A DNA stretch of 64,000 nucleotides, taken from NCBI GenBank assembly GCA_949287905.1, contig CASEHX010000009.1, forward strand, positions 23,365 through 87,364, given 5' to 3'. The translations under genes were made by a program, and so were the position numbers. This DNA comes from an uncultured Olsenella sp. (GTDB lineage: Bacteria; Actinomycetota; Coriobacteriia; Coriobacteriales; Atopobiaceae). The notes under the pieces are model-generated. The model worked only from the letters and a program-made list of their open reading frames with translations. It was not told where the DNA came from and did no database searches. This document shows, in pieces, positions 12,335 through 42,975 of this stretch (within the stretch, counting starts at the first letter, position 1; every line of letters begins with the position of its first letter).

Positions 12335-13828
12335 ATGGCAGACGAGCAGAGCGTCCAGCAGCAGACCACCCAGGCAACGGACGAGGTGATTACGGCCCCG
12401 GCCGAGAAACGCCTAGGCCTCCCGGAAGCCGCGAGCAAGGACCTTGCGTGGGAGACAGACGGCCAGCGCATCGACTACACCGCCACGGCCGCCCACCTCG
12501 ACGTCCGCACGGACACCGGCTCGCTCATCGGCAAGATGTTCAGCCTCTCCTACGTGGCCAAGCTCGAGGGCGAGAAGAGCGCCCGCCCCGTGACCTTCTG
12601 CTACAACGGCGGCCCGGGCAGCTCGTCGGTCCCCGTGAACCTCGGCGGCATCGGCCCGCGCCGCGTGGCCACGGACGGCACCGCGCACCTCTCCCTGCCC
12701 GCGCGCGTTGAGGACAACCCCCACACGCTGCTACGCCAGAGTGACCTCGTCTTCCTGGACGCGCTCGGCACCGGCTACTCGGCCATCGCCGAGGGCGTGG
12801 ACCCCAAGACCGTCTGGGGCGTGGACGGCGACGCGGATGCCTTCGCCCGCGCGATCGTCGCGTGGCTCACGGCCAACCACCGCTGGGGCTCGCCGGTCTA
12901 CCTCTTCGGCGAGTCGTACGGCACGATCCGCAACGCCGTCCTCATGCGCGTGCTGGGCGAGAAGAACGTGCCCGTGCGTGGCGTCATCATGCTCTCCGCG
13001 ATCTTCGATTGGGTGCAGACCCTGCCCGGCGAGGACCTCTACTACCTGGGCATGCTGCCGACCTTTGCCGCGACGGCCCACTACTTCGGCCGCGCCGGCA
13101 AGGGCGCCGACGAGGTCCAGTGGTTCGAGGACGCGATGGACTTCACCGAGCGCGTCTACGCCCCGGCGCTGCTGCGCGGCGACCGCCTGCCCGCGCGCGA
13201 GAAGACCTCCGTGGCGCGGCGCATCTCCAAGTTGATCGGCCTTCCCGTCGAGCAGATCGAGCGGTGCAACCTGCGCGTTGACCTCGACACCTTCCGCCGC
13301 AGCCTGCTCGCGGACGAAGGTCTGGTCACCGGTCGCCTGGACATGCGCTTCACCTCGGCTGCGCCGCTGCCGGTCCAGGGGTCCACGGCCTTCTTTGCCG
13401 CTGAGGACCCGGCTGACGACGCGGTGGAGAGCGTCTGGCACGCCGCCTTCCGCGCGCACCTCGACGAGATCGGCTTTGCCGGCGCGCCCACCTACCTCGT
13501 GAGCAACTACAGCAAGGTAGGCGTGGCCTGGAACTGGACGCACGAGGAGCCTGGCACGGAGGAGCCCGCCACCGCGCCCAACGTCACCTACGACATCGCC
13601 GTGGCCATGAAGCGCAACCCCACGATGCGCCTGCTCATCCTCGGTGGCCGCTACGACGCGGCGACCACCTACTGGAACGTGGTGCACGACATGTCCTGTC
13701 TGTTCCTGCCCCCTGCCCTCAAGGAGCGCGTGAGCTATAGGCTCTACGGCTGCGGCCACATGGCCTACGTCGACGTGCCCACGCTCGAGGCGATGGGCGC
13801 CGACCTCGCGGAGTTCTACGCAAAATGA
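12335..13828 (+). CDS. S10-family serine carboxypeptidase-like peptidase
   Basis: ATG 12335 after GGAGG. FCYNGGPGSSSV...LFGESYGT (catalytic Ser motif). The longer ORF-track N-terminus is antisense to the ProX gene. Confidence 0.85.
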   Translation: MADEQSVQQQTTQATDEVITAPAEKRLGLPEAASKDLAWETDGQRIDYTATAAHLDVRTDTGSLIGKMFSLSYVAKLEGEKSARPVTFCYNGGPGSSSVPVNLGGIGPRRVATDGTAHLSLPARVEDNPHTLLRQSDLVFLDALGTGYSAIAEGVDPKTVWGVDGDADAFARAIVAWLTANHRWGSPVYLFGESYGTIRNAVLMRVLGEKNVPVRGVIMLSAIFDWVQTLPGEDLYYLGMLPTFAATAHYFGRAGKGADEVQWFEDAMDFTERVYAPALLRGDRLPAREKTSVARRISKLIGLPVEQIERCNLRVDLDTFRRSLLADEGLVTGRLDMRFTSAAPLPVQGSTAFFAAEDPADDAVESVWHAAFRAHLDEIGFAGAPTYLVSNYSKVGVAWNWTHEEPGTEEPATAPNVTYDIAVAMKRNPTMRLLILGGRYDAATTYWNVVHDMSCLFLPPALKERVSYRLYGCGHMAYVDVPTLEAMGADLAEFYAK

Positions 13829-13858
13829 TTCAAAAGGGGTCTGTCCCCTTTTGAATCA
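13826..13858. repeat. palindromic hairpin element, family P (P4)
   Basis: tgattcaaaaggggtctgtccccttttgaatca. TGA 13826-13828 is the peptidase stop. TCA 13856-13858 is the stop of the convergent MBL gene. Confidence 0.8.
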
Positions 13859-16769: not shown

Positions 16770-18152
16770 TTGTCCCACGAGACGAGGGAGTCATCCTTGT
16801 CCGATTGTGAAAAGCGTCCACATTGGGGGAGGCGCGTTCTTCTCGGCCTGTTGGTCGTCGTGGTCGTGGCCGGCGTGGCGCTTGCGATCGGCGTGTGGCA
16901 CCGGCTCGACCAGCGCAGCCGCGGCGAGGGCGTGGTCCAGGCACCGAGCGAGTTTGCCGCGCTGGAGGGCTCTACCGGGCGCACCGGCGCCTTCACGGCA
17001 GACATCGACTTCACGAGTATGGCCACCGGTGCGGAGACCATCTCCACCGAGGTGGCCTGGGATGACGACTGGTTCTTCCAGGATCCCACCGTCTACAACC
17101 ACGAGCTCGCCACCACGTGCTCCGTGCTCTCTGCCGTGGCCAACTCCGAGTCCGCATACTACCAGGCGGGGTCCGACTCGCCGGCCTACATGGAGGCCGC
17201 GCTCGCGGCGCTGGGCTTTGAGCAGATCTCCACGGCGTCCTACCAGTACCGCAGCGAGATCTTCGATGAGATCGTGGACTTTATCACCGGTACGGACGAC
17301 GTGGTTGCCTACTCGGTTGCCACCAAGCACGTGACCAGCGCGGACGGGGCCGAGAAGACCCTCTTCCTCGTGTCCATCCGCGGCAGCTACGGCTCCGAGT
17401 GGCTGAGCGACCTCAACATGGGCGATGCCGCTGTCTACGACATGGACGAGATCACGCACGAGGGCTTCGCCCAGGCCGCGCGCGAGATCGTGGACGAGCT
17501 CATGGCGCGCATCACCGAGGAGGCGGGGCTCGACGGCACGGACGATATCTGCCTGCTCTTCACCGGGCACTCGCGTGGTGCCGCAGCGGCAAACATCGCG
17601 GCCGCGTACGCCGACGAGATGTCGCAGGGCCTGCGCGTGCTGGCACCGCTTTCGAGCATCTACTGCTACACCTTTGCCACGCCCGAGGTTACGACCTTTG
17701 ATACGGCGCGCGATGCCCTCTACGACAACATCTTCAACGTCATGAACCCCAGTGACATGGTGCCGCGTCTTCCGCTTGCATCCTGGGGCTACGAGCGCTT
17801 TGGGCACGACCTGTGGCTCCCCGGCTATGGCGACGAGGGCTTCGACGAGGCGCACGAGGCCATGTGCGAGGTCTTCGAGGCCAACACGGGCGTTGCGTGT
17901 CCCTACGTGCCCGAGGACCGCGAGCACGTGGACAAGCTCGTGGAGGACCTGGGACGCGAGATCCCCACGGCCGACGATTTGGCGACGCTTGGCGGCGGGG
18001 CCACCGTTGTGAAGGACCTTCTCGCGGACGTGAACCCCATGCAGGTCCTCTACGGTCACTACCCGAGCGTCTACATCGCCTGGATGCAGTCGCTCGACTC
18101 TGTGACAATGGGGTCGTGTGACAATGGGGTCGTAGCCAACTGTCACATGTGA
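16770..18152 (+). CDS. class-3 lipase family protein with N-terminal membrane anchor
   Basis: GHSRGAAAANIAAAY (GxSxG nucleophile elbow), and N-terminal LLGLLVVVVVAGVALAIGV. The start is uncertain (TTG 16770 or downstream). The last about 17 codons and the stop lie inside the tandem repeat at 18101-18178. Confidence 0.8.
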   Translation: MSHETRESSLSDCEKRPHWGRRVLLGLLVVVVVAGVALAIGVWHRLDQRSRGEGVVQAPSEFAALEGSTGRTGAFTADIDFTSMATGAETISTEVAWDDDWFFQDPTVYNHELATTCSVLSAVANSESAYYQAGSDSPAYMEAALAALGFEQISTASYQYRSEIFDEIVDFITGTDDVVAYSVATKHVTSADGAEKTLFLVSIRGSYGSEWLSDLNMGDAAVYDMDEITHEGFAQAAREIVDELMARITEEAGLDGTDDICLLFTGHSRGAAAANIAAAYADEMSQGLRVLAPLSSIYCYTFATPEVTTFDTARDALYDNIFNVMNPSDMVPRLPLASWGYERFGHDLWLPGYGDEGFDEAHEAMCEVFEANTGVACPYVPEDREHVDKLVEDLGREIPTADDLATLGGGATVVKDLLADVNPMQVLYGHYPSVYIAWMQSLDSVTMGSCDNGVVANCHM

Positions 18153-18178
18153 CAATGGGGTCGTAGCCGACTGTCACA
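18101..18178 (+). repeat. 2.5 tandem copies of a 31-nt palindrome-ended unit TGTGACAATGGGGTCGTAGCCRACTGTCACA
   Basis: Partial unit 18101-18116, full units 18117-18147 and 18148-18178. The same unit recurs at 27407-27471. Confidence 0.85.
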
Positions 18179-22524: not shown

Positions 22525-24609
22525 CTACTGCCCGCAGAGCGCCTGTCGAATGAGCTGGGAGAACGCGACCATTCCCTTGCCGGTGAGATGAATGCCGTCG
22601 TCCACGAGGTACTCGCTGTGTCCCTCGCTCGCCCCGCACCAGTCGATGATTCCCACGTTGGGGTTCTCGGCGGCAAAGTCGCGCAGGATCTCGTTGTTGA
22701 GGTCTTGGAGCTCGAGGGGGCTGCGGATGGTGACAAAGAACATCGGCTTTCCCCCCACGACGTCGATGAGGGCCTGTACCGTTGACTTGTCCCTGATGAG
22801 ACCGTTGCCGCCAAGGGCGAAGACAACGACCTCGGGGTCGTAGCCGCCTGCCACATCTGCCGCGTAGACGTCCTGTCCCACGTAGAGCTGCCGGCTCACC
22901 TTGCCGTCGACCAGGGCGTTGGGGAGCATCTTCCTCAGCTCCGGCGCGGCACCCTCGGTGACGGAGTCGCCGATGATGAGGGCACGGGCATCGCAGGTGC
23001 CGGTCTCGGGATCAAAGCTCCACGACTCCCACGGGAGATTGTCGGGGACCTTCTCGGCAACGGGCGCCGGCCGCTCGGGCTCCTCGGGCTTTTCTTCGGG
23101 CTCCTTCGCGGGCTTCTCGGAGTCCCCCTTCTCAGACGTGGGCTCGGACGGGGCGTTGGTGGCCTCGGACGGGTCGGTCTCGGACGAGTCGTCCTCGGGA
23201 GTGGTGGCCTCGGGAGCCGCGGCCTCGGGCTCTTCCGCGAGCTCGGGGCGCAGAACCGTCGCGCGCTCCTGCGCCATGGCCTGCCAGTCCACCGGCGCAA
23301 ACGCGAGAGCTCCCACCGCGCAGGCCCCAACGACGCCGAGACAGGCGGCCACAGAGGCGGAGGCTATGTCGCGTGCGCGCCGCTTGCCCTTCTCGTGCCC
23401 GAGGAAGCGCGCGCACGGGGCCTCCACCAGGCGATAGAAGACCTCCGCCACGAGCAGAACCAGGATGACCTGCAGCGCCTGCTCCCACCATGTGACGTCC
23501 GTGGTCCGCGTGGCCGGGTTCATGAGGATGAGCATGGGGTAGTGCACAAGGTAGATCGAGAACGAGCGCGTGCCGAGCAGTCGCAGAGGGGCCACGGAGA
23601 GCGCCCGTCCGAGCGGGCATCCGGGAAGCTTGACGCTGGCGAGCAGCGCGGTGGTGACGAGCGCTGCGGCGAGGTAGCCGCCGCGATACATGAGGGGGTC
23701 CTCGCCGTTGGCGAGCACGAAGCCGGCGAGAAGCGCGGCAAGGCAGACGACGCCGACGATCGTGGCAAGAACGGTCGCGGCCGTGCCCGCCTTGACATGC
23801 CTGCCGTCCTTCTCTGCCGAGCCGGGGAGCGCGAGCGCGACGAGCGAACCCGCAAGAAGCTCGGCAGCGCGGGCGTCGGTTCCGTAGTAGACGCGCGTCG
23901 TGTCTCCCGAGGGGTCGAGGAGGAGGGCCATGACGGCAGCGGATGCGAGGATGAGTACGCAGGTGAGTGCGGTCCCGCGGCGGCGCGCGCCTCTGTGCGT
24001 TCGAGCGGTGCGCCAGATCGCCATGAGCACGAGAGGCCATACGACGTAGAACTGCATGACCACGCCGAGGTACCACAGGTGCGTGAGCGGCGAGGGCAGG
24101 CCCGCCGCCTGGAAGTACGGAACCTGGCGGAAGATGTAGGACCAGTTGCCAAAGAAGAGAGACCCGGGGAGGGCGTCCGCCTGGACCTTGGGGAGGAGGC
24201 TCGGGCTAACGAGATAGGTGCCCAGAGCCGTAAGTGCAACGATCACGAGCACCGGCGGGAGCAGACGAACGACTCGCTTGAGGAGATAGCCCCCGTAACT
24301 AAACGCCTCTCGGTCAAGTGCGCTCGTGACGCTTCGCGTGGCGAGAAAGCCCGTGATCACGAGAAAGACCGTGACCCCGAGAAACCCGCCCGCAAGCACC
24401 GAGGGCCGCAGATGGTAGAGCACCACGCCGATGATGGCGACGGCACGCAGTCCGTCGAGGGCGCCGATGCGCTGTGCCGACGCTCCTCCTTTGGTTGCCG
24501 AATGGGCGGTTTTCTCGGCAGCTTTATTTCGTGCGGTGCCGGTGGTGGTTGCAAAGTGCGAGGGCATTCTCGGTGCGGTCGCCCCGCTGGCTTGCGCGTG
24601 ATTTGTCAT
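22525..24609 (-). CDS. acyltransferase-3 family membrane protein with C-terminal SGNH domain (OatA-like O-acetyltransferase)
   Basis: ATG 24609 with RBS AAAGGAG. LDGLRAVAIIGVVLYH... is followed by about 10 TM helices, an acidic Pro/Glu linker, then IIGDSVTEG (SGNH block I). Confidence 0.85.
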   Translation of the reverse strand: MTNHAQASGATAPRMPSHFATTTGTARNKAAEKTAHSATKGGASAQRIGALDGLRAVAIIGVVLYHLRPSVLAGGFLGVTVFLVITGFLATRSVTSALDREAFSYGGYLLKRVVRLLPPVLVIVALTALGTYLVSPSLLPKVQADALPGSLFFGNWSYIFRQVPYFQAAGLPSPLTHLWYLGVVMQFYVVWPLVLMAIWRTARTHRGARRRGTALTCVLILASAAVMALLLDPSGDTTRVYYGTDARAAELLAGSLVALALPGSAEKDGRHVKAGTAATVLATIVGVVCLAALLAGFVLANGEDPLMYRGGYLAAALVTTALLASVKLPGCPLGRALSVAPLRLLGTRSFSIYLVHYPMLILMNPATRTTDVTWWEQALQVILVLLVAEVFYRLVEAPCARFLGHEKGKRRARDIASASVAACLGVVGACAVGALAFAPVDWQAMAQERATVLRPELAEEPEAAAPEATTPEDDSSETDPSEATNAPSEPTSEKGDSEKPAKEPEEKPEEPERPAPVAEKVPDNLPWESWSFDPETGTCDARALIIGDSVTEGAAPELRKMLPNALVDGKVSRQLYVGQDVYAADVAGGYDPEVVVFALGGNGLIRDKSTVQALIDVVGGKPMFFVTIRSPLELQDLNNEILRDFAAENPNVGIIDWCGASEGHSEYLVDDGIHLTGKGMVAFSQLIRQALCGQ

Positions 24610-24678
24610 GCGGGCTCCTTTCCGGCTCCCCATTGTAGGAGGTTCGGGGCGCCGAAGGCGTGCGGCCTGCCTGCCTAT

Positions 24679-24961
24679 GACGGTTGTGCGCACCGTCGGC
24701 GGTTGTGCGCAGTCCCGACGGTTGTGCGCACCGCCGACGGCTATGCGCACCTCTGGAGCGCCTCGTTATTCTCGTCATGCTCCTGAGCTCGGAATATAGC
24801 AAATGAATCTTTGCGCACAACCGTTACGAGTGCGCACAGCCGCCGCGGGTGCGCATAACCGTAACGAGTGCTCACAACCGGCACGAGTGCGCACAATCGC
24901 CAACAGCGTGCACAACCGGCGCAAGTGCGCACAACCGCCGGGGAGATTGCGCCCGCAACCG
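24679..24961. repeat. foldback-like element 1: inverted arrays of 19-nt-periodic subrepeats with GTGCGCAC core
   Basis: 4 units of GACGGTTGTGCGCAC start at 24679, 24698, 24717 and 24736. A 60-nt spacer contains GGAATATAGCAAATGAATCT. 8 inverted units of GTGCGCACAACCG start at 24811, 24830, 24849, 24868, 24887, 24908, 24925 and 24947. Confidence 0.9.
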
Positions 24962-25055: not shown

Positions 25056-25886
25056 ATGCGCGTCGAGAAGATCGAGCTGCCGGGAGCTGGCCACGGGGCA
25101 AAGATTCCCACGCTCACGGCATACGTGCAGGACAACATAGAGGACCGGGCCGCGCGTCGGAGGCCGGCTGCGCTGATCTGCCCGGGCGGCGGCTACGCGT
25201 TTTGCTCCGACCGCGAGGGTGAGCCGATCGCCCTGGCCCTTCTCGCCCGCGGATATCAGGCCTTTGTCCTTGACTACACGGTGATCGATGCCGCCGAGGC
25301 AGCGCCACTGCTGCCCGCGCCGCAGATGGACCTCGCCCGCGCGCTGGCACTTGTGCGCTCTCGTGCTGGTGACTGGCACGTTGACGAGGCGCGCATCGGG
25401 CTCGTCGGCTGCTCGGCCGGCGCGCACCTGTGTGCCACGTACACGGCGCTCACGCGAGACGACGCGTTTCTCGCCCGCGCGGGAGTCTCCGCCGCGGAGG
25501 CGCGCGTTGCGTGGCAGGTGCTCTGCTACCCGGTCGTCGACCTCGAGGCCGGTTGGCCGCCGGACCCCGCGTACGCCGCGCGCATCTGCGAGGAGGGCTC
25601 ACCCCTGCGGCACGCCCAGGATCTGGTGAGCGACGCCACGCCGCCCACCTTCCTTTGGCACACGGCAGTCGACGAGACGGTCCCGGTGCGCAACGCCTAT
25701 CTCCTTGCGGGGGCCCTCGCCGCGCACGGGGTGGACCACGAGTGCCATGTCTTCCACGCAGGGCGCCACGGCCTCTCGCTCGCCACGGAGCAGACCTCGC
25801 ACTATGCGGGCGACGCGCTGCCCCATCTTGCCCGCTGGTTCGACCTTGCCCTGGAGTGGGCCGGCGAGCTCATGGGAGAGAAGTAG
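25056..25886 (+). CDS. alpha/beta-hydrolase (esterase/lipase, HSL-like)
   Basis: ATG 25056 after GAGAGGAG. ICPGGGY oxyanion-type motif and GCSAGAHL (GxSxG). Confidence 0.85.
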   Translation: MRVEKIELPGAGHGAKIPTLTAYVQDNIEDRAARRRPAALICPGGGYAFCSDREGEPIALALLARGYQAFVLDYTVIDAAEAAPLLPAPQMDLARALALVRSRAGDWHVDEARIGLVGCSAGAHLCATYTALTRDDAFLARAGVSAAEARVAWQVLCYPVVDLEAGWPPDPAYAARICEEGSPLRHAQDLVSDATPPTFLWHTAVDETVPVRNAYLLAGALAAHGVDHECHVFHAGRHGLSLATEQTSHYAGDALPHLARWFDLALEWAGELMGEK

Positions 25887-25922
25887 CCGTGGGGCGAGAA
25901 CGTCTCCCGCGGCGACAAAGGC

Positions 25923-26569
25923 ATGCCCGTCGAGAGCGCGGCGGCACCCGCAAGACGCGTTGACCGACGCGTGCGCCGGAGCCGCCGGGCCATCATCGAG
26001 GCCTTTGACCGACTGATCATGGACGAGGCCATCGACCAGATCACCGTGAGCCTGATCGCGCGCGAGGCCGACGTCGACCGCAAGACCTTCTCGACCGCAA
26101 GACCTTCTACCAGCATTTTGGCTCTATCGACGGGCTGCTCGACGCAATCGCCGAGGACGTGGTCACCGAGCTGCTGGACAAGGTCGAGCGCGTCGTGCAG
26201 GCCAGCCCGGGTGGTTCCGATCAACGCCCCCTGCGCACCTTCCTCGCGTCCCTCACCGAGCATCTGAGCAAGAACCTCCTTCTGGGGCAGCGCTACTGCG
26301 AGCACGTGCCCTCCGAGCTGCTCTTGGAGCATCTTGCGCGTCTGCTCGTGCGTCAGTGCGTGGACAGGGGGTTCGTGAGCGAGGACATCCCGGACGACGA
26401 GCTGGAGATGCTTCTCGCCCATGGGCTCGGCGGGCTCTTCTCGCTGTATCGCTGGTGGCTGCTCTCGGACCGAATGCTGACGATTGCCGAGGTGACGCAG
26501 CTGGCCTGCCAGCTTGTAGAGGGCGGCGTGTCGTCGTTTGTGAAAGAGGGGGAGCGGGCGCTTCGCTAG
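25923..26569 (+). pseudogene. TetR/AcrR-family regulator disrupted by a 17-bp tandem duplication (frameshift)
   Basis: ORFs 25923..26267 and 26159..26569 are the two halves. The unit cgaccgcaagaccttct occurs twice in perfect tandem (26075-26091, 26092-26108). Removing one copy restores ...IAREADVDRKTFYQHFGSIDGLLDAIAEDVVTELLDKVERVV... in a single frame. Confidence 0.8.
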
Positions 26570-26574
26570 TCGGC

Positions 26575-26757
26575 GACGGTTATGCGCAACCTTGACGGTT
26601 ATGCGCACCGCCGGGGCGCTTCGATTTTCTCGCTAAGCCTTTGACGTTGGAATATAGAAAACGAATCTGTGTGCGTAACCGCCGCGATTGCGCATAGCCG
26701 CCGCGAGTGCGCATAACCGCCGCGATTGCGCATAGCCGTCGGCGGCGCGCATAACCG
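26575..26757. repeat. foldback-like element 2: same architecture as 24679-24961
   Basis: 2 units of GACGGTTATGCGCA start at 26575 and 26594. The spacer contains GGAATATAGAAAACGAATCT. 5 inverted units of (G/T)TGCGCATA(A/G)CCG start at 26669, 26688, 26707, 26726 and 26745, an exact 19-nt period. Confidence 0.9.
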
Positions 26758-26766
26758 CCGGCAAGA

Positions 26767-26806
26767 GGCCCGCCCGCCGGGGGTGAGCGGCGGGCGGGCC
26801 TTTCTC
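26767..26806 (+). terminator. GC-rich stem-loop with short T-tract
   Basis: ggcccgcccgcc-ggggtgagc-ggcgggcgggcc followed by tttctc. It lies between foldback element 2 and the uspA stop. Confidence 0.55.
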
Positions 26807-26826: not shown

Positions 26827-27303
26827 CTACTTCACCGTGAGCACCGGCACGTCAACGGAGCGGAGCACGCCAAAGCTCACGCTTCCGATCATGCCGCGCA
26901 GCGCTCCCAGGCCACGCCGCCCCATCACAACGAGGTCGATGTCGTGGCTCTTCACGTAGTCCGCGATGCCCTCCACCGGGGAGTCCGCGATGACCGCGTC
27001 CGCCACGATCTTGCACTCCGCATCGTCGCGCGCCTGGTCGATGACGGCCTGGGCGTCGGAGCTCGCGCGCTCGACGGTCGCCTCCATGATGCGCTCGTAC
27101 GTGCTCGGATCGCCGAGGGCGTAGGGCACGTCAAGGCTGCCGTCGCTCAGCAGCGTTGGATTGGGGAGCGCGGCAGAGGGGATGACGGTCACCACGCTGA
27201 CCTTTGCCTCGGGATAGGGGCCCGCCAAGCCGAGCGCTATGTGAAGGGCGCTCTTTGCGTGGTCGGACTCGTCGTAGGGGACCAGGATGTTTTTGAAGTA
27301 CAT
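26827..27303 (-). CDS. universal stress protein (UspA family)
   Basis: ATG 27303 after GAGGGAGG. MYFKNILVPYDESDHAKSAL...DLVVMGRRGLGALRGMIGSVSFGVLRSVDVPVLTV. Confidence 0.85.
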   Translation of the reverse strand: MYFKNILVPYDESDHAKSALHIALGLAGPYPEAKVSVVTVIPSAALPNPTLLSDGSLDVPYALGDPSTYERIMEATVERASSDAQAVIDQARDDAECKIVADAVIADSPVEGIADYVKSHDIDLVVMGRRGLGALRGMIGSVSFGVLRSVDVPVLTVK

Positions 27304-27406
27304 GGTTACCTCCCTCAAGACGAAACCGGGACCTACCTGCGTTATACCCGTCGTCCGACGAATGACGTGGGGGCTCGGTGAGCGTAGGCGAGAAGCCCGT
27401 GGACGC

Positions 27407-27471
27407 GTGACAAAGGGGTCGTAGCCGAGTGTCACCTATGATGTGACAAAGGGGTCGTAGCCGAGTGTCAC
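27407..27471 (+). repeat. two copies of the 29-nt unit GTGACAAAGGGGTCGTAGCCGAGTGTCAC
   Basis: Units at 27407-27435 and 27443-27471, in the divergent uspA/MBL promoter region. Same family as 18101-18178. Confidence 0.85.
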
Positions 27472-27490
27472 GTTTGTGTGGGAGGCGGTC

Positions 27491-28330
27491 ATGCTCGTCA
27501 CGGTGCTCATGGAGAACAGCACGCCCTCGAGCCGTCTTGCCGCGCGACACGGCCTCTCCCTGTGGGTCGAGCTGGCAGACGGCCGTCACGTTCTCTTTGA
27601 CATGGGGCCGGACGACGGGTTTCTCGCCAACGCGCACGTTCTCGAGGTGGATGTGACGTCGGCCGACCTAGCGGTTCTCAGCCATGGTCACTACGACCAC
27701 GGCGGCGGGCTCCGCGCGTTTCTCGCCGCCTGTGCGAAGGCGGGGCGCGACGTGCCCGTCTACGTTCGAGACCATGCCTTTGAGGAGCACGTCTCCGGAA
27801 CGCCCGCGCGCCACCACGACATCGGGCTTGATCCGGGGCTGGCCACCGATCCGCATGTCCACGTGGTTGGCGAGAAGCGCGAACTGGGCGGCGGACTCGT
27901 GCTCTTCTCTACGGAGCGGCGCTCACATCCTGCGGCCCGGTCGAACAAACGCCTGCTCATGCGCGATGAGGACGACGCGCTCGTCCCGGACACCTTTGCC
28001 CATGAGCAGAGCCTTCTGGTGAAGGAGGGTGGTCGGCGGATTCTTGTCTCGGGGTGCTCACACGGGGGAATCCTCAACCTGATGGACGCCGCCGAGCAGG
28101 TGGCCGGCGCGCCGCTGGACGCGGTTGTGGCAGGCTTCCACCTCATGGATCCGAGCGGGGGAGCGGTGGAGGACGCGGAGCTCACTCGTGCGTTGGCCCG
28201 GGAGCTGGCGGCGCGAGGCACCTCCTATTACACCTTCCACTGCACCGGCACCGACGCGTTCTCGATTCTGCGCGACGAGCTCGGCGAGCGAGTTCGCTAC
28301 CTCCATGTGGGTAGTCGTGCGGATGTGTGA
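27491..28330 (+). CDS. MBL-fold metallo-hydrolase
   Basis: ATG 27491 after GGGAGG. VLSHGHYDHGGGL motif. Confidence 0.85.
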   Translation: MLVTVLMENSTPSSRLAARHGLSLWVELADGRHVLFDMGPDDGFLANAHVLEVDVTSADLAVLSHGHYDHGGGLRAFLAACAKAGRDVPVYVRDHAFEEHVSGTPARHHDIGLDPGLATDPHVHVVGEKRELGGGLVLFSTERRSHPAARSNKRLLMRDEDDALVPDTFAHEQSLLVKEGGRRILVSGCSHGGILNLMDAAEQVAGAPLDAVVAGFHLMDPSGGAVEDAELTRALARELAARGTSYYTFHCTGTDAFSILRDELGERVRYLHVGSRADV

Positions 28331-30761: not shown

Positions 30762-31943
30762 ATGCTCGGCAACTTCACCTATCACAACCCCACCAAGCTC
30801 ATCTTTGGCAAGGACGCCATGCAGGCCCTCGCGACGGAGCTCGCGGCCTACGGCCCGACCGTCCAGCTCGTCTACGGCGGCGGCTCCATCAAGCGAAACG
30901 GCATCTACGACCAGGTGATTTCCGCGCTTGCGTCGGCGGGCAAGACCGTCGTCGAGGACGCGGGCGTCATGCCCAATCCCACGATCGAGAAGCTCTATGA
31001 GGGCGTGGCCATCGCGCGCGAGAACCGCGTGGATCTCATCCTCGCGGTGGGCGGCGGCTCCTGCATCGACTACGCCAAGGCGGTGGCCGTCTCCGCCAAC
31101 CTGCCTGCGGACGTGGATCCCTGGCAGAAGTACTGGGTGGACTTCGACGAGCCGGCGGCCGACCTCGACGTCATCCCCGTGGGCTCGGTTCTCACGATGG
31201 TGGGCACGGGCTCGGAGATGAACTGTGGCTCGGTCATCACCAACCACGAGACCAAGATGAAGGTCGGCCATGTCTTTGCGGATGCGCACGTGTTCCCGCG
31301 CTTTGCCGTGCTGAACCCCGAGTTCACCTACACGCTGCCCAAGTACCAGATGGTCGCCGGCATCTTCGACATCATGAACCACATCACCGAGCAGTACTTC
31401 TCGGGCACAGACGACAACACGTCCGATTACCTCTCCGAGGGTCTCATGCGCTCGCTCGTGGCCGCCAGCCGCGCCGCGATGGCAAACCCGGAGGACTATG
31501 AGGCTCGCTCCAACATCATGTGGTGCGCCACGTGGGCGCTCAACACGCTCGTGGCCTGCGGAAAGTCCACGGACTGGGAGGTCCACATGCTCGGCCAGGC
31601 CGTCGGCGCCCACACCGACGCCACGCACGGCATGACGCTCGCCGCCGTGGCGCTGCCGTACTACCGCCTGGTCATGCCCTATGGCGTGGAGAAGTTCGCG
31701 CGGTTCGCCAGCAACGTGTGGGGCGTCTCGCCCGAGGGCCGCACGACCGAGGAGCTCGCGTCTGCCGGCCTCGACGCGATGGAGGCCTGGATGCGCGAGA
31801 TCGGCTGCGTCATGAGCATCTCCGAGCTCGGCGCCACCGAGGACATGCTCGAGGATCTTGCCGACTCCACCCTCGTCATGCAGGGCGGCTACCACGTGCT
31901 CACGCGTGACGAGATCATCCGCATCTTCCGCGAGAGCCTGTGA
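30762..31943 (+). CDS. iron-containing (group III) alcohol dehydrogenase, YqhD/BdhA-like
   Basis: ATG 30762 after AAAGGAGA. MLGNFTYHNPTKLIFGKDAM...VYGGGSIKRNGIYD...AVGGGSCIDYAKA. Confidence 0.9.
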   Translation: MLGNFTYHNPTKLIFGKDAMQALATELAAYGPTVQLVYGGGSIKRNGIYDQVISALASAGKTVVEDAGVMPNPTIEKLYEGVAIARENRVDLILAVGGGSCIDYAKAVAVSANLPADVDPWQKYWVDFDEPAADLDVIPVGSVLTMVGTGSEMNCGSVITNHETKMKVGHVFADAHVFPRFAVLNPEFTYTLPKYQMVAGIFDIMNHITEQYFSGTDDNTSDYLSEGLMRSLVAASRAAMANPEDYEARSNIMWCATWALNTLVACGKSTDWEVHMLGQAVGAHTDATHGMTLAAVALPYYRLVMPYGVEKFARFASNVWGVSPEGRTTEELASAGLDAMEAWMREIGCVMSISELGATEDMLEDLADSTLVMQGGYHVLTRDEIIRIFRESL

Positions 31944-31973
31944 TTCAAAGGGGGACAGACCCCTTTTGAATCA
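31941..31973. repeat. palindromic hairpin element, family P (P6)
   Basis: tgattcaaagggggacagaccccttttgaatca. The TGA is the adh stop. The element ends 29 nt before the next ATG. Confidence 0.8.
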
Positions 31974-33409: not shown

Positions 33410-34033
33410 ATGCTGACGAGAAGGAACTTCCTGGCAGTTGCCATTGCGGGCATGACCGCGCTCCTATCCGGCTGCTCCGGCGAGAAGGACGAGGCGCCCG
33501 CGGCCGATTCGGCAACGGGGCCGATCGAGGACGCCCCCGCGGCGGATGCCGCGCCGGCGGGCAACGTGCTCGTCGCGTATTTCTCGGCGACGGGCAACAC
33601 GGAGGGTGTGGCCACCGTGATCGCCGAGCGCCTGGGCGCGGACGTCTTTGCCATCGAGGCCGCGCAGCCCTACACGGAGGCGGACCTGAACTACAGCGAC
33701 GACGCCTCCCGCACGAGCGTCGAGCGCGCGGACGGGACCAACCCCGAGCTCGCGCAGGTCACGCCCGACGGCTGGGCCGACTACGACACGGTCTTTCTCG
33801 GCTACCCGATCTGGTGGGGCGAGGCGGCCTGGCCGCTGCGCACGTTCGTGGTAGGCAACGACTTTGCCGGCAAGACCGTGGTGCCGTTCTGCACGTCGGG
33901 CTCGTCGGGAATTGGGGGCAGCGCCGATGGCCTTGAGGAGCTTGCGGGTTCCGGTGATTGGCGCGAGGGCGAGCGCTTCTCGTCCGGCGCCGGCGACGAG
34001 GCGGCAGACTGGGCCGCCAGCCTGGGACTGTGA
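33410..34033 (+). CDS. Tat-signal lipoprotein flavodoxin
   Basis: MLTRRNFLAVAIAGMTALLSGCSG. NVLVAYFSATGNTEGVA...FLGYPIWWGEAAWP...PFCTSGSSGIG is a flavodoxin_4-type sequence. Confidence 0.85.
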   Translation: MLTRRNFLAVAIAGMTALLSGCSGEKDEAPAADSATGPIEDAPAADAAPAGNVLVAYFSATGNTEGVATVIAERLGADVFAIEAAQPYTEADLNYSDDASRTSVERADGTNPELAQVTPDGWADYDTVFLGYPIWWGEAAWPLRTFVVGNDFAGKTVVPFCTSGSSGIGGSADGLEELAGSGDWREGERFSSGAGDEAADWAASLGL

Positions 34034-34063
34034 TTCAAAAGGGGTCTGTCCCCTTTTGAATCA
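34031..34063. repeat. palindromic hairpin element, family P (P7)
   Basis: tgattcaaaaggggtctgtccccttttgaatca. The TGA is the flavodoxin stop. The element ends 18 nt before the next GTG start. Confidence 0.8.
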
Positions 34064-42942: not shown

Positions 42943-42975
42943 TGATCCAAAAGGGGACAGTCCCCTTTTGAATCA
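42943..42975. repeat. palindromic hairpin element, family P (P11)
   Basis: tgatccaaaaggggacagtccccttttgaatca. TCA 42973-42975 is the ABC-F stop on the minus strand. Confidence 0.8.

Follow-up and report, generated by a model that had tools for sequence, protein, structure and literature searches.

Between two divergent genes of an uncultured Olsenella sp., within the 64,000-nt stretch of DNA analysed here (the window), two arrays of short repeats face each other across a unique spacer, and this arrangement raises the question of whether the locus carries a mobile element, a structure that folds back on itself, a genetic switch or a set of sites that a protein reads. A preliminary description had likened it to eukaryotic foldback transposons or, alternatively, to an iteron-like array of protein-binding sites. 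The locus, here referred to as copy A (24681-24961), turns out to be the largest member seen of a previously undescribed family of non-coding repeats, with four units on one side and seven on the other.

The left arm of copy A (24681-24749, minus strand) consists of four 12-nt cores at 24681, 24700, 24719 and 24738, spaced at a period of 19 nt and reading CGGTTGTGCGCA on the plus strand and TGCGCACAACCG on the minus strand; the four units GACGG(T/C)T(G/A)TGCGCA placed earlier at 24679, 24698, 24717 and 24736 were recovered at exactly these starts by reading of the sequence, by TRF and by a register print-out. The right arm (24812-24937, plus strand) holds seven TGCGCAYARCCG cores in exact 19-nt register, at 24812, 24831, 24850, 24869, 24888, 24907 and 24926, and TRF reported the period of 19 at 24679-24751 as well as at 24812-24939. 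Eight units had been described for this arm, of which seven stand in register (unit starts 24811, 24830, 24849, 24868, 24887, 24906 and 24925); the sixth begins at 24906 rather than at 24908, where it had been put because it is degenerate (GCGTGCACAACCG), and the eighth, at about 24947, is itself a degenerate unit with a 3-nt insertion (TTGCGCCCGCAACCG, 24947-24961, plus strand) that is retained in orthologous copies. The spacer, estimated before at about 60 nt, measures exactly 62 nt between the innermost 12-nt cores (24750-24811, plus strand) and forms a polar centre, in which block 1 (GTTATTCTCGTC, 24765-24776) represents the clade-wide motif GTTCTTCTCGCC in diverged form, block 2 occupies approximately 24784-24797, and a lineage-specific block, GGAATATAGCAAATGAATCT (24791-24810), is common to a second copy in the window.

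This second copy, copy B (26577-26757), lies 1858 nt downstream in the same orientation and has two and five units. Its left arm (26577-26607, minus strand) carries two CGGTTATGCGCA cores at 26577 and 26596, its right arm (26670-26757, plus strand) five cores at 26670, 26689, 26708, 26727 and 26746, and its 62-nt centre (26608-26669, plus strand), which is related to that of copy A, contains ATTTTCTCGCTA as block 1 and GGAATATAGAAAACGAATCT at 26649-26668. The conserved spacer block was thus rightly said to be shared with a second locus: the pattern GGAATATAG-N-AAA-N-GAATCT is far above chance and occurs in the window only in copies A and B, and the centre block GGAATATAGNAAANGAATCT is found twice in the window against an expectation of 0. 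With up to two mismatches allowed, the 12-mer TGCGCACAACCG has 23 matches in the window against 11.8 +/- 3.5 in shuffled sequences, 19 of the 23 being accounted for by the two copies.

The two copies sit in different genic surroundings. Copy A separates divergent genes, namely an OatA-like acyltransferase with Acyl_transf_3 and SGNH/GDSL domains on its left (22525-24609, minus strand) and an alpha/beta-hydrolase esterase (BD-FAE) on its right (25056-25886, plus strand), the start of which, at 25056, was confirmed. Copy B lies between two 3' ends, those of a TetR-like regulator remnant on its left (25923-26569, plus strand) and of a universal stress protein (Usp) gene on its right (26827-27303, minus strand), directly beside a G+C-rich hairpin (26768-26800, no strand assigned) that abuts the copy, lies outside the repeat and is probably a bidirectional terminator of the TetR-like and Usp genes. 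Two lesions have disabled the TetR-like gene: a tandem duplication of 17 bp (26074-26107) interrupts it, and a 1.67-kb deletion has removed its 5' end. Upstream of the acyltransferase gene, the hexamer TACAAT (24632-24637, minus strand), 43 nt from the first copy A core, is probably the -10 element, judging from its conservation; its distance to the ATG is the same in relatives with and without the element. The assignment of the element to the leader and promoter region of the OatA-like gene therefore stands for the gene start at 24609 and fails for the leader, given that copy A lies upstream of the likely -10. That one copy occupies a promoter region and the other a terminator region argues against a promoter-specific device, and a device specific to the acyltransferase/esterase promoter is further contradicted by other copies, which adjoin unrelated genes and often lie between convergent 3' ends, as well as by relatives that have the same gene order and carry no element.

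Rather than being confined to these two loci, as the preliminary description had allowed, the element is dispersed and variable. A scan of one genome per species across 185,579 species, with two perfect adjacent units as the query, matched 28 loci, 27 of them in Atopobiaceae; the metagenome-assembled genome (MAG) BRZ_SB__bin7 has at least 14 loci and uncultured Olsenella SI.A9 at least nine, the other carriers being a strain deposited as Olsenella uli An820, Candidatus Olsenella stercoravium and one more MAG. The per-genome counts are lower bounds, most of the compared genomes being fragmented MAGs. Altogether, the same plan recurs at 18 or more independent loci, all of them intergenic, that belong to at least five species of Olsenella-type gut Atopobiaceae, and the family was found only in this clade by a perfect-unit scan, which would miss diverged relatives in other Atopobiaceae. 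The remaining match, L008 in Pirellulaceae, was rejected as a family member, since it has only four same-strand units and lacks the clade motif. No family match was obtained in viral contigs, plasmid records or phage records, the metagenome scan yielded only two unrelated simple repeats (L038 and L039), and no arm array without its 62-nt partner was found in the genomes of the 185,579 species, metagenomes, plasmids or phages. The core 12-mers are absent from the searchable literature, in which no such repeats are described for these taxa.

The architecture is remarkably uniform. In 32 of 32 delimited copies, a minus-strand arm, a 62-nt centre and a plus-strand arm follow one another, with 2-4 inverted and 2-7 forward units, 2 + 3 being the commonest form; a first-pass centre of 81 nt was obtained where the innermost unit was a TGTACA variant skipped by the scan. 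Each 19-bp unit combines a conserved 12-bp core, TGCGCAYAACCG, with a loosely conserved 7-bp linker (consensus tCGCGAG), and the arms are inverted such that the TGCGCA end of every core points inward. The 8-bp palindrome GTGCGCAC noted earlier holds in copy A, but the family-wide palindrome is only TGCGCA, because core position 7 is T in 75% of 167 units. The centres are polar and align without gaps, with two blocks, GGTTCTTCTCGCCAAG (positions 14-30) and CTACCTGCGGATAT (positions 35-48), on either side of which the sequence is unconstrained. Elements measure 105-281 bp and are non-coding, since a 19-nt period excludes coding. One of the centre blocks reproduces a 12-mer, GGCGAGAAGRRC, which is vastly over-represented throughout the clade.

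The genes that adjoin independent loci are unrelated housekeeping genes, including those for IMP dehydrogenase, aroB/aroA, MurC, an AddA-type helicase, HisRS, an iron hydrogenase, a P-type ATPase and an MFS transporter. Positions between convergent genes or next to terminator hairpins are frequent, and the orientation of the element relative to the neighbouring genes is roughly even, many copies facing two 3' ends. No transposase or recombinase gene was found beside the copies at 18 or more loci, and no recurring linked gene was found at the loci examined.

Comparison of orthologous copies reveals how the element changes. Flanks are collinear, and indels between orthologs are exact multiples of 19 nt. 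The right arm of copy B has four, five or six units among nine strains that encode an identical Usp protein, and copy A, compared in eight genomes, has (acyltransferase-side plus esterase-side units) 4 + 7 in the window strain and L050, 2 + 4 in L052, 2 + 3 in L026 and L031, 2 + 2 in L007 and L016, and 3 + 2 in L051. The copy-number polymorphism predicted earlier is hence directly observed, in 19-nt steps, between strains as well as between species. Two rearrangements of the centre were seen: in one species (L009) the centre and inner units are inverted relative to two others (L012 and L019), with flanks and outer units remaining collinear, and L024, compared with its ortholog L021, has lost the centre by a deletion that runs from one TGCGCA core to another. 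The flipped centre is confined to one of eight ortholog groups, and orientation is constant for copy B in nine strains and for copy A in eight genomes.

On a longer time scale, copy positions are fixed across species within the clade, and the element is absent from sister lineages. In L033 and L036, two more distant relatives, the order acyltransferase / esterase ... Usp / MBL is preserved, with intergenic gaps of only 83-100 nt and no element, which indicates that the elements were added in one lineage; both copies are lacking there, in sequences too diverged to provide clean empty sites. Nearby copies are mutual closest relatives (copies A and B of the window and the pairs in L022, L029 and L023), a relationship that fits local copying or gene conversion. 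Such pairs flank the esterase and TetR genes in the window and a ParE toxin gene in L022 and L029. The notion that the two window copies are att-like sites bracketing imported cargo was rejected, as the element-free relatives share the esterase...Usp order.

Different parts of the element evolve at different rates. Among 18 independent loci, mismatches amount to 9% in cores, 53% in linkers, 37% in centre blocks and 66% in the other centre positions, the last value being near random, that is, close to saturation; core mismatches fall mostly at the Y and R positions. Despite this saturation outside the blocks, no centre indel occurs in 34 copies. In eight hand-checked ortholog pairs, in which centre-adjacent cores were tested (a small set of 192 core positions), cores differ by 7.3% and blocks by 8.2%, against 17% for the other centre positions (Fisher p = 0.003 for cores and 0.005 for blocks), although the apparent core constraint could in part reflect homogenisation of units or the loss of diverged units from register-based counts. 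Four-fold-site identity among the compared genomes is 0.85-0.88 (esterase, Usp and binding protein genes), so that these are close relatives at a short time depth, and high ortholog identity of the element alone is consequently no evidence of constraint. The acyltransferase, with 71% identity, was discarded as a divergence clock, as the acyltransferase and MBL genes are unusually diverged alleles.

We consider that the family is best read as a mosaic repeat of the BIME/BOX kind and as a docking place on which a putative sequence-specific DNA-binding protein encoded elsewhere would assemble, a reading to which we assign a probability of roughly 55%. The identical 12-bp word, fixed register, inward symmetry and invariant centre are features of the kind that a protein complex reads, which leads us to propose an assembly site; in particular, the identity of the core sequence at all loci implies a trans-acting reader rather than mere self-complementarity. 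In a hairpin, covariation would be tolerated, and arms of equal length and linkers able to pair would be favoured, so that the conserved features are not those that a hairpin needs. The earlier alternative of an iteron-like protein-binding array survives in part, given that the data on the centre and on class-wise conservation favour binding sites, but not in the sense of plasmid or phage iterons, which are direct repeats beside a rep gene and an A+T-rich unwinding region on a replicon: a rep gene is missing, plasmid and phage records yielded no match, and copies occupy many chromosomal loci beside housekeeping genes. Counted against the assembly-site reading is that no linked gene recurs beside the copies.

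Under this assembly-site reading, each core would dock one subunit of the DNA-binding protein, for which a recombinase or transposase would be the most plausible kind, given that the family must have spread at some time. The centre may act as a fixed-length bend, a spacer or a second binding site, with the arms held in a defined geometry. The protein machinery, or its ancestor, would have seeded copies into intergenic DNA of the clade's ancestor, frequently next to terminators and with a preference for sites near an existing copy, and copy A would have been added to an ancestrally short divergent promoter region of about 90 bp. The copies are now positionally stable; unit number may drift through whole-unit slippage or unequal exchange, and exchange between the two arms could flip the centre. 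Standing against a spreader of the transposase type are the lack of a target-site duplication and the failure to find an autonomous parent in genomes, metagenomes, plasmids or phages, although MAGs often lose IS copies.

Several other explanations account for part of these data. Tn5090/Tn402 ends carry arrayed transposase-binding repeats, and the family could by analogy be a MITE, that is, a deletion derivative of an insertion sequence or of a Tn7/Mu/Tn402-like transposon with end arrays of transposase-binding sites, mobilised in trans and without host function. We regard this as unlikely, though deserving of serious attention: the elements are small, non-coding, multi-copy and intergenic with inverted arms, they are missing at orthologous sites of sister lineages, neighbouring copies are mutual closest relatives as after local hopping, arms are better conserved than the interior as in active MITE lineages, and arrayed repeats of this kind on Tn5090/Tn402 ends are indicated by a title cited in PMC7765201. 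Against it, no 4-8-nt direct repeat was found at a consistent offset in 19 copies (best count 2, against up to 3 in shuffles), so that a target-site duplication is wanting at any offset, no transposase adjoins any copy, arrays never occur without their 62-nt partner in the databases scanned, and no autonomous relative with the same ends and a transposase was recovered, all family scan matches being composite, although MAGs under-represent IS copies. Moreover, occupation of the same sites across species speaks against recent movement, cores are kept better than neighbouring positions, which selfish decay does not predict, and the outermost unit, the would-be cleaved terminus, varies in number between strains. 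The foldback transposon proposed at the outset is likewise not supported, given the absence of a target-site duplication, the absence of a transposase at 18 or more loci, and linkers that are not complementary beyond the level between elements. REP/BIME, BOX or Correia transcripts provide the model for an element that acts at the level of RNA, in which the arms would pair within neighbouring mRNAs as a long interrupted hairpin that terminates or stabilises the transcript or is processed. The single-strand fold of copy A is indeed strong (-85.1 kcal/mol against -58.6 +/- 3.5 for shuffled sequences; z = -7.6), and sites downstream of genes and beside terminator hairpins are frequent; yet the fold is diffuse, with an MFE frequency of 0.0001 in an ensemble in which many registers compete, the arms are unequal (four and seven; two and five), and left and right linkers are complementary at 3.05 of 7 positions within elements compared with 3.24 of 7 between elements. 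The two arms can thus fold back, as had been suggested, but the absence of excess linker complementarity means that a long cruciform is not what selection preserves. Pairing alone would also permit covariation in a core that is identical across loci, a loop needs neither the fixed length nor the fixed polarity of the centre, copy A lies upstream of the acyltransferase -10 and so outside its mRNA, and no Rfam family was matched at gathering thresholds, the sole hit at E < 1 being a plant miRNA hairpin model (45 bits against a threshold of 197 bits). An RNA-level role is accordingly judged improbable.

An invertible switch of the fim/shufflon type, in which a recombinase would exchange strands between one core of each arm, flip the polar centre and thereby alter flanking expression or the orientation of a centre motif, would account for the one clear inversion of centre and inner units between collinear flanks. 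The core GTGCGCATAA also resembles what we take to be the XerC arm of E. coli dif, and asymmetric inverted sites recall R64 sfx, whose asymmetry restricts Rci to inversions (PMC11852207). A switch is nonetheless decidedly improbable in view of the constant orientation in nine strains (copy B) and eight genomes (copy A), the single flipped group among eight, the lack of a linked recombinase gene and a centre in which a simple consensus scan found no sigma-70-type promoter; a single inversion over evolutionary time could, besides, arise from any inverted repeat. Least probable, and hardly credible in our view, is that the arrays form a DnaA-box cluster or a locus-specific operator of the neighbouring TetR-like regulator. 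Known clusters that titrate or reactivate DnaA combine boxes with a central architectural site, and TTATGCGCA is presumably only one specified position away from the DnaA-box consensus TTATNCACA; that mismatch, however, falls at a normally invariant position of the box. The TetR-type gene between copies A and B speaks for an operator, but sixteen other loci have no TetR neighbour, and the window strain, in which the TetR gene no longer functions, has both elements intact and at their greatest size, on which grounds the operator was rejected.

Among described systems, we know of no counterpart to a rigid polar centre flanked by two inverted arrays of variable unit number. The nearest parallels to the family in lifestyle and modular build are BIME/RIP, BOX, MIRU and Correia/NIME repeats, and the grammar of its sites comes closest to the multi-site ends of Tn402, Tn7 and Mu or to arm-type attP sites. 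BOX elements of Streptococcus pneumoniae and MIRU-VNTR of mycobacteria are dispersed intergenic repeats with a strain-variable number of internal units, lacking a transposase and of unproven mobility, and the family shares with them dispersed intergenic modules, variable unit number and the absence of a transposase. BOX has the composition boxA-(boxB)n-boxC with one variable 45-nt module, and MIRUs, at 46-101 nt, form simple direct arrays; a fixed polar centre between two inverted arrays is a feature of neither. BIMEs of enterobacteria, including the RIP (RIB) form, are like the family extragenic, dispersed, often located at 3' ends and built as mosaics of variable-copy motifs (background in PMC2817692). 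In RIP, two inverted motifs surround a central site for an architectural protein, a plan that resembles that of the family, and BIMEs are known as protein-binding platforms, in line with the putative reading favoured here (PMC2817692). The family likewise is extragenic and dispersed, with at least 14 loci in one fragmented MAG, but differs in that REPs are 20-40-nt imperfect palindromes that alternate, whereas its own 19-nt units run head-to-tail as direct repeats within each arm and contain only the 6-bp palindrome TGCGCA; REP/BIME copies, moreover, number in the hundreds, as opposed to tens of copies, of unrelated sequence, in the family, and REP/BIME is associated with RAYT (Y1 transposase) genes, an association not known for the family.

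Correia/NIME elements of Neisseria and other MITEs are, like the family, small non-coding intergenic inverted-repeat elements, some having a central IHF site; they also coexist with an abundant genomic 10-12-mer, the DUS (PMC10969869, PMC3184786). In Correia elements the inverted repeats are single, measure 26 bp and come with a TA duplication, in contrast to the tandem-array arms of the family, for which no duplication was detected; of the traits of a MITE, inverted arms, a size of 105-281 bp and non-coding character are present, and target-site duplication and parent element are absent. The ends of Tn5090/Tn402, Tn7 and Mu and lambda-like attP sites contain regular tandem inverted sites at strict spacing next to a recombinase gene, and the 2 + 3 arrangement of the family resembles the P and P' arms of lambda attP. 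Those arrays, however, flank kilobases of DNA or a phage crossover core, with fixed site numbers and an adjacent recombinase, whereas the arms of the family enclose 62 bp, vary in unit number and have no linked recombinase. The R64 sfx site combines one conserved arm of 12 bp with a 7-bp core and a second, variable arm, an asymmetry that limits Rci to inversions (PMC11852207). Asymmetric sites, a conserved 12-bp arm and inverted use are shared with the family, in which one inversion was seen, but sfx sites occur singly between coding segments with a conserved 7-bp core and adjacent rci (PMC11852207), and the sites of the family are tandem, with the 7-bp part least conserved and no invertase gene nearby. 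Invertons would be expected to have an adjacent recombinase and a sigma-70-type promoter, neither of which was found next to or, by prediction, within the centre. Eukaryotic Foldback transposons share long inverted arms of tandem subrepeats and a short middle, but are kilobase-scale, generate target-site duplications and in some cases encode a transposase, none of which was seen in the family. A CRISPR identity had already been dismissed and can stay dismissed: CRISPR arrays have 23-50-nt repeats, unique spacers of similar length and usually cas genes, whereas here the period is 19 nt, the 7-nt linkers share a consensus and no cas genes lie nearby.

Interspersed repeats such as REP/BIME, BOX, Correia and MIRU have proved to serve as binding platforms and recombination hot spots, as regulators at the RNA level and as markers for typing, and to our knowledge none of such kinds has been described for Coriobacteriia, which are common gut and oral Actinomycetota. 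The strict grammar of the family, with its 12-bp core, 19-bp register, 62-bp polar centre and inward symmetry, points to a specific, putative DNA-binding protein. A bolder proposal, which we consider distinctly unlikely, is that the elements are the working sites of a new Atopobiaceae system for site-specific recombination or chromosome marking, in which an Xer- or Rci-like protein would read the asymmetric 12-bp cores and, by strand exchange between the arms, flip the centre and alter the number of units on each arm, so that the centre would present GGCGAGAAGRRC in a switchable orientation; if true, the arrays and GGCGAGAAGRRC would belong together in a single system that couples a genome-wide signature sequence to the exchange of DNA or the handling of the chromosome, and we know of no system in Actinomycetota that makes such a link. 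The 12-mer itself, which is found roughly once in every kb, on either strand and in every reading frame, resembles in this the uptake sequences of Neisseria and Haemophilus.

For the genes of the window, the consequence of the element is probably modest, as the promoter region works without it in related species. In practice, strain variation in 19-bp steps would provide ready VNTR markers for strain tracking in metagenomes. The arrays also break short-read assemblies, as is apparent from the many copies that sit at contig ends.

A hyper-abundant 12-mer, GGCGAGAAGRRC (reverse complement G-Y-Y-CTTCTCGCC), recurs across the window and all Atopobiaceae loci sampled from other genomes (L003-L037), and it makes up block 1, the first conserved block in the centre of the array element. 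Allowing up to two mismatches, the window holds 115 sites against 8.4 +/- 3 expected, with exact copies at, for example, 8040, 12956, 19203, 28395, 34426, 34766, 35375, 35775, 42004 and 45130. The 9-mer CTTCTCGCC is the top-ranking 9-mer of the window by a threefold lead (n=61, about one per kb), and the corresponding 7-mer is evenly split between strands (69 plus, 68 minus). The 12-mer is a signal at the level of DNA, since it runs in both directions with respect to genes and falls in several different frames; no intergenic enrichment was observed. Furthermore, the 7-mer reaches about two per kb, at comparable density in all Atopobiaceae genomes sampled, including those free of the array element, and its density is zero in the Pirellulaceae control. 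In density and strand symmetry the 12-mer is similar to Neisseria and Haemophilus uptake sequences, and no report of GGCGAGAAGRRC was found in the searchable literature.

At the core palindrome TGCGCA of the array element, the most frequent variants among the 167 family units are TGTGCA and TGCACA, along with the double change TGTACA, the last of which preserves the palindrome. The two single changes are transitions, both at the central CpG; they could stem from deamination at a GCGC site that is methylated, or dyad symmetry may be under selection.

Further structural variation adjoins copy A (24681-24961) in other strains. In one of these loci (L051, 2206-2500) the esterase gene is wholly missing next to the copy, and the boundary of the rearrangement coincides with the exact outer edge of the array; in another (L050, 291-1184) the esterase is frameshifted, with duplication of the hexapeptide VDEARI. 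Additionally, two elements with identical centres flank a small ParE-toxin gene at two other loci (L022, 1342-2240; L029, 3811-4726), in a cassette situated between the MurC and AddA-type helicase genes, and the antitoxin probably also lies inside the element-bracketed segment. Recombination at the element may have brought this cassette in.

Beside copy B (26577-26757), the TetR-like gene of the window strain is a pseudogene. Its lesions, located at 26074-26107 and 25886-25900 by comparison with the locus L040 (4235-6567), comprise a perfect 17-bp tandem duplication (TCGACCGCAAGACCTTC x2) that shifts the frame, and the loss of 1.67 kb, whose junction shows a 15-nt overlap. This deletion took away a radical-SAM gene and the divergent promoter region, together with the 5'-terminal 55 nt of the TetR gene. 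TetR is intact, at 240 aa, in seven further strains that encode this same Usp protein, and the six of them with contigs reaching far enough also retain an intact radical-SAM gene.

On a broader scale, comparison of the window with the locus L031 gave four-fold-site identities of 0.56 for the acyltransferase (22525-24609) and 0.46 for the metallo-beta-lactamase-fold gene (27476-28330), as against 0.85-0.88 for the neighbouring esterase, Usp and binding-protein genes. Since these two genes are far more diverged than their neighbours, the sequence comparison suggests allelic replacement by recombination.

Two other repeats are present in the window. The first, a dispersed 33-nt near-perfect palindrome, TGATTCAAAAGGGG-ACAGA-CCCCTTTTGAATCA, occupies four intergenic sites (13826-13858, 31941-31973, 34031-34063 and 42943-42975) and looks like a REP-like sequence or a bidirectional terminator. 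The other is a unit of about 31-36 nt, TGTGACAA(A/T)GGGGTCGTAGCC(G/A)A(C/G)TGTCAC, whose ends are inverted (GTGACA...TGTCAC). Two intergenic sites, 18117-18178 and 27406-27470, each carry a tandem pair of it; the former lies between the lipase and CHAD genes and the latter in the divergent Usp/MBL region, and the unit looks like an operator through which one regulator would act on both.
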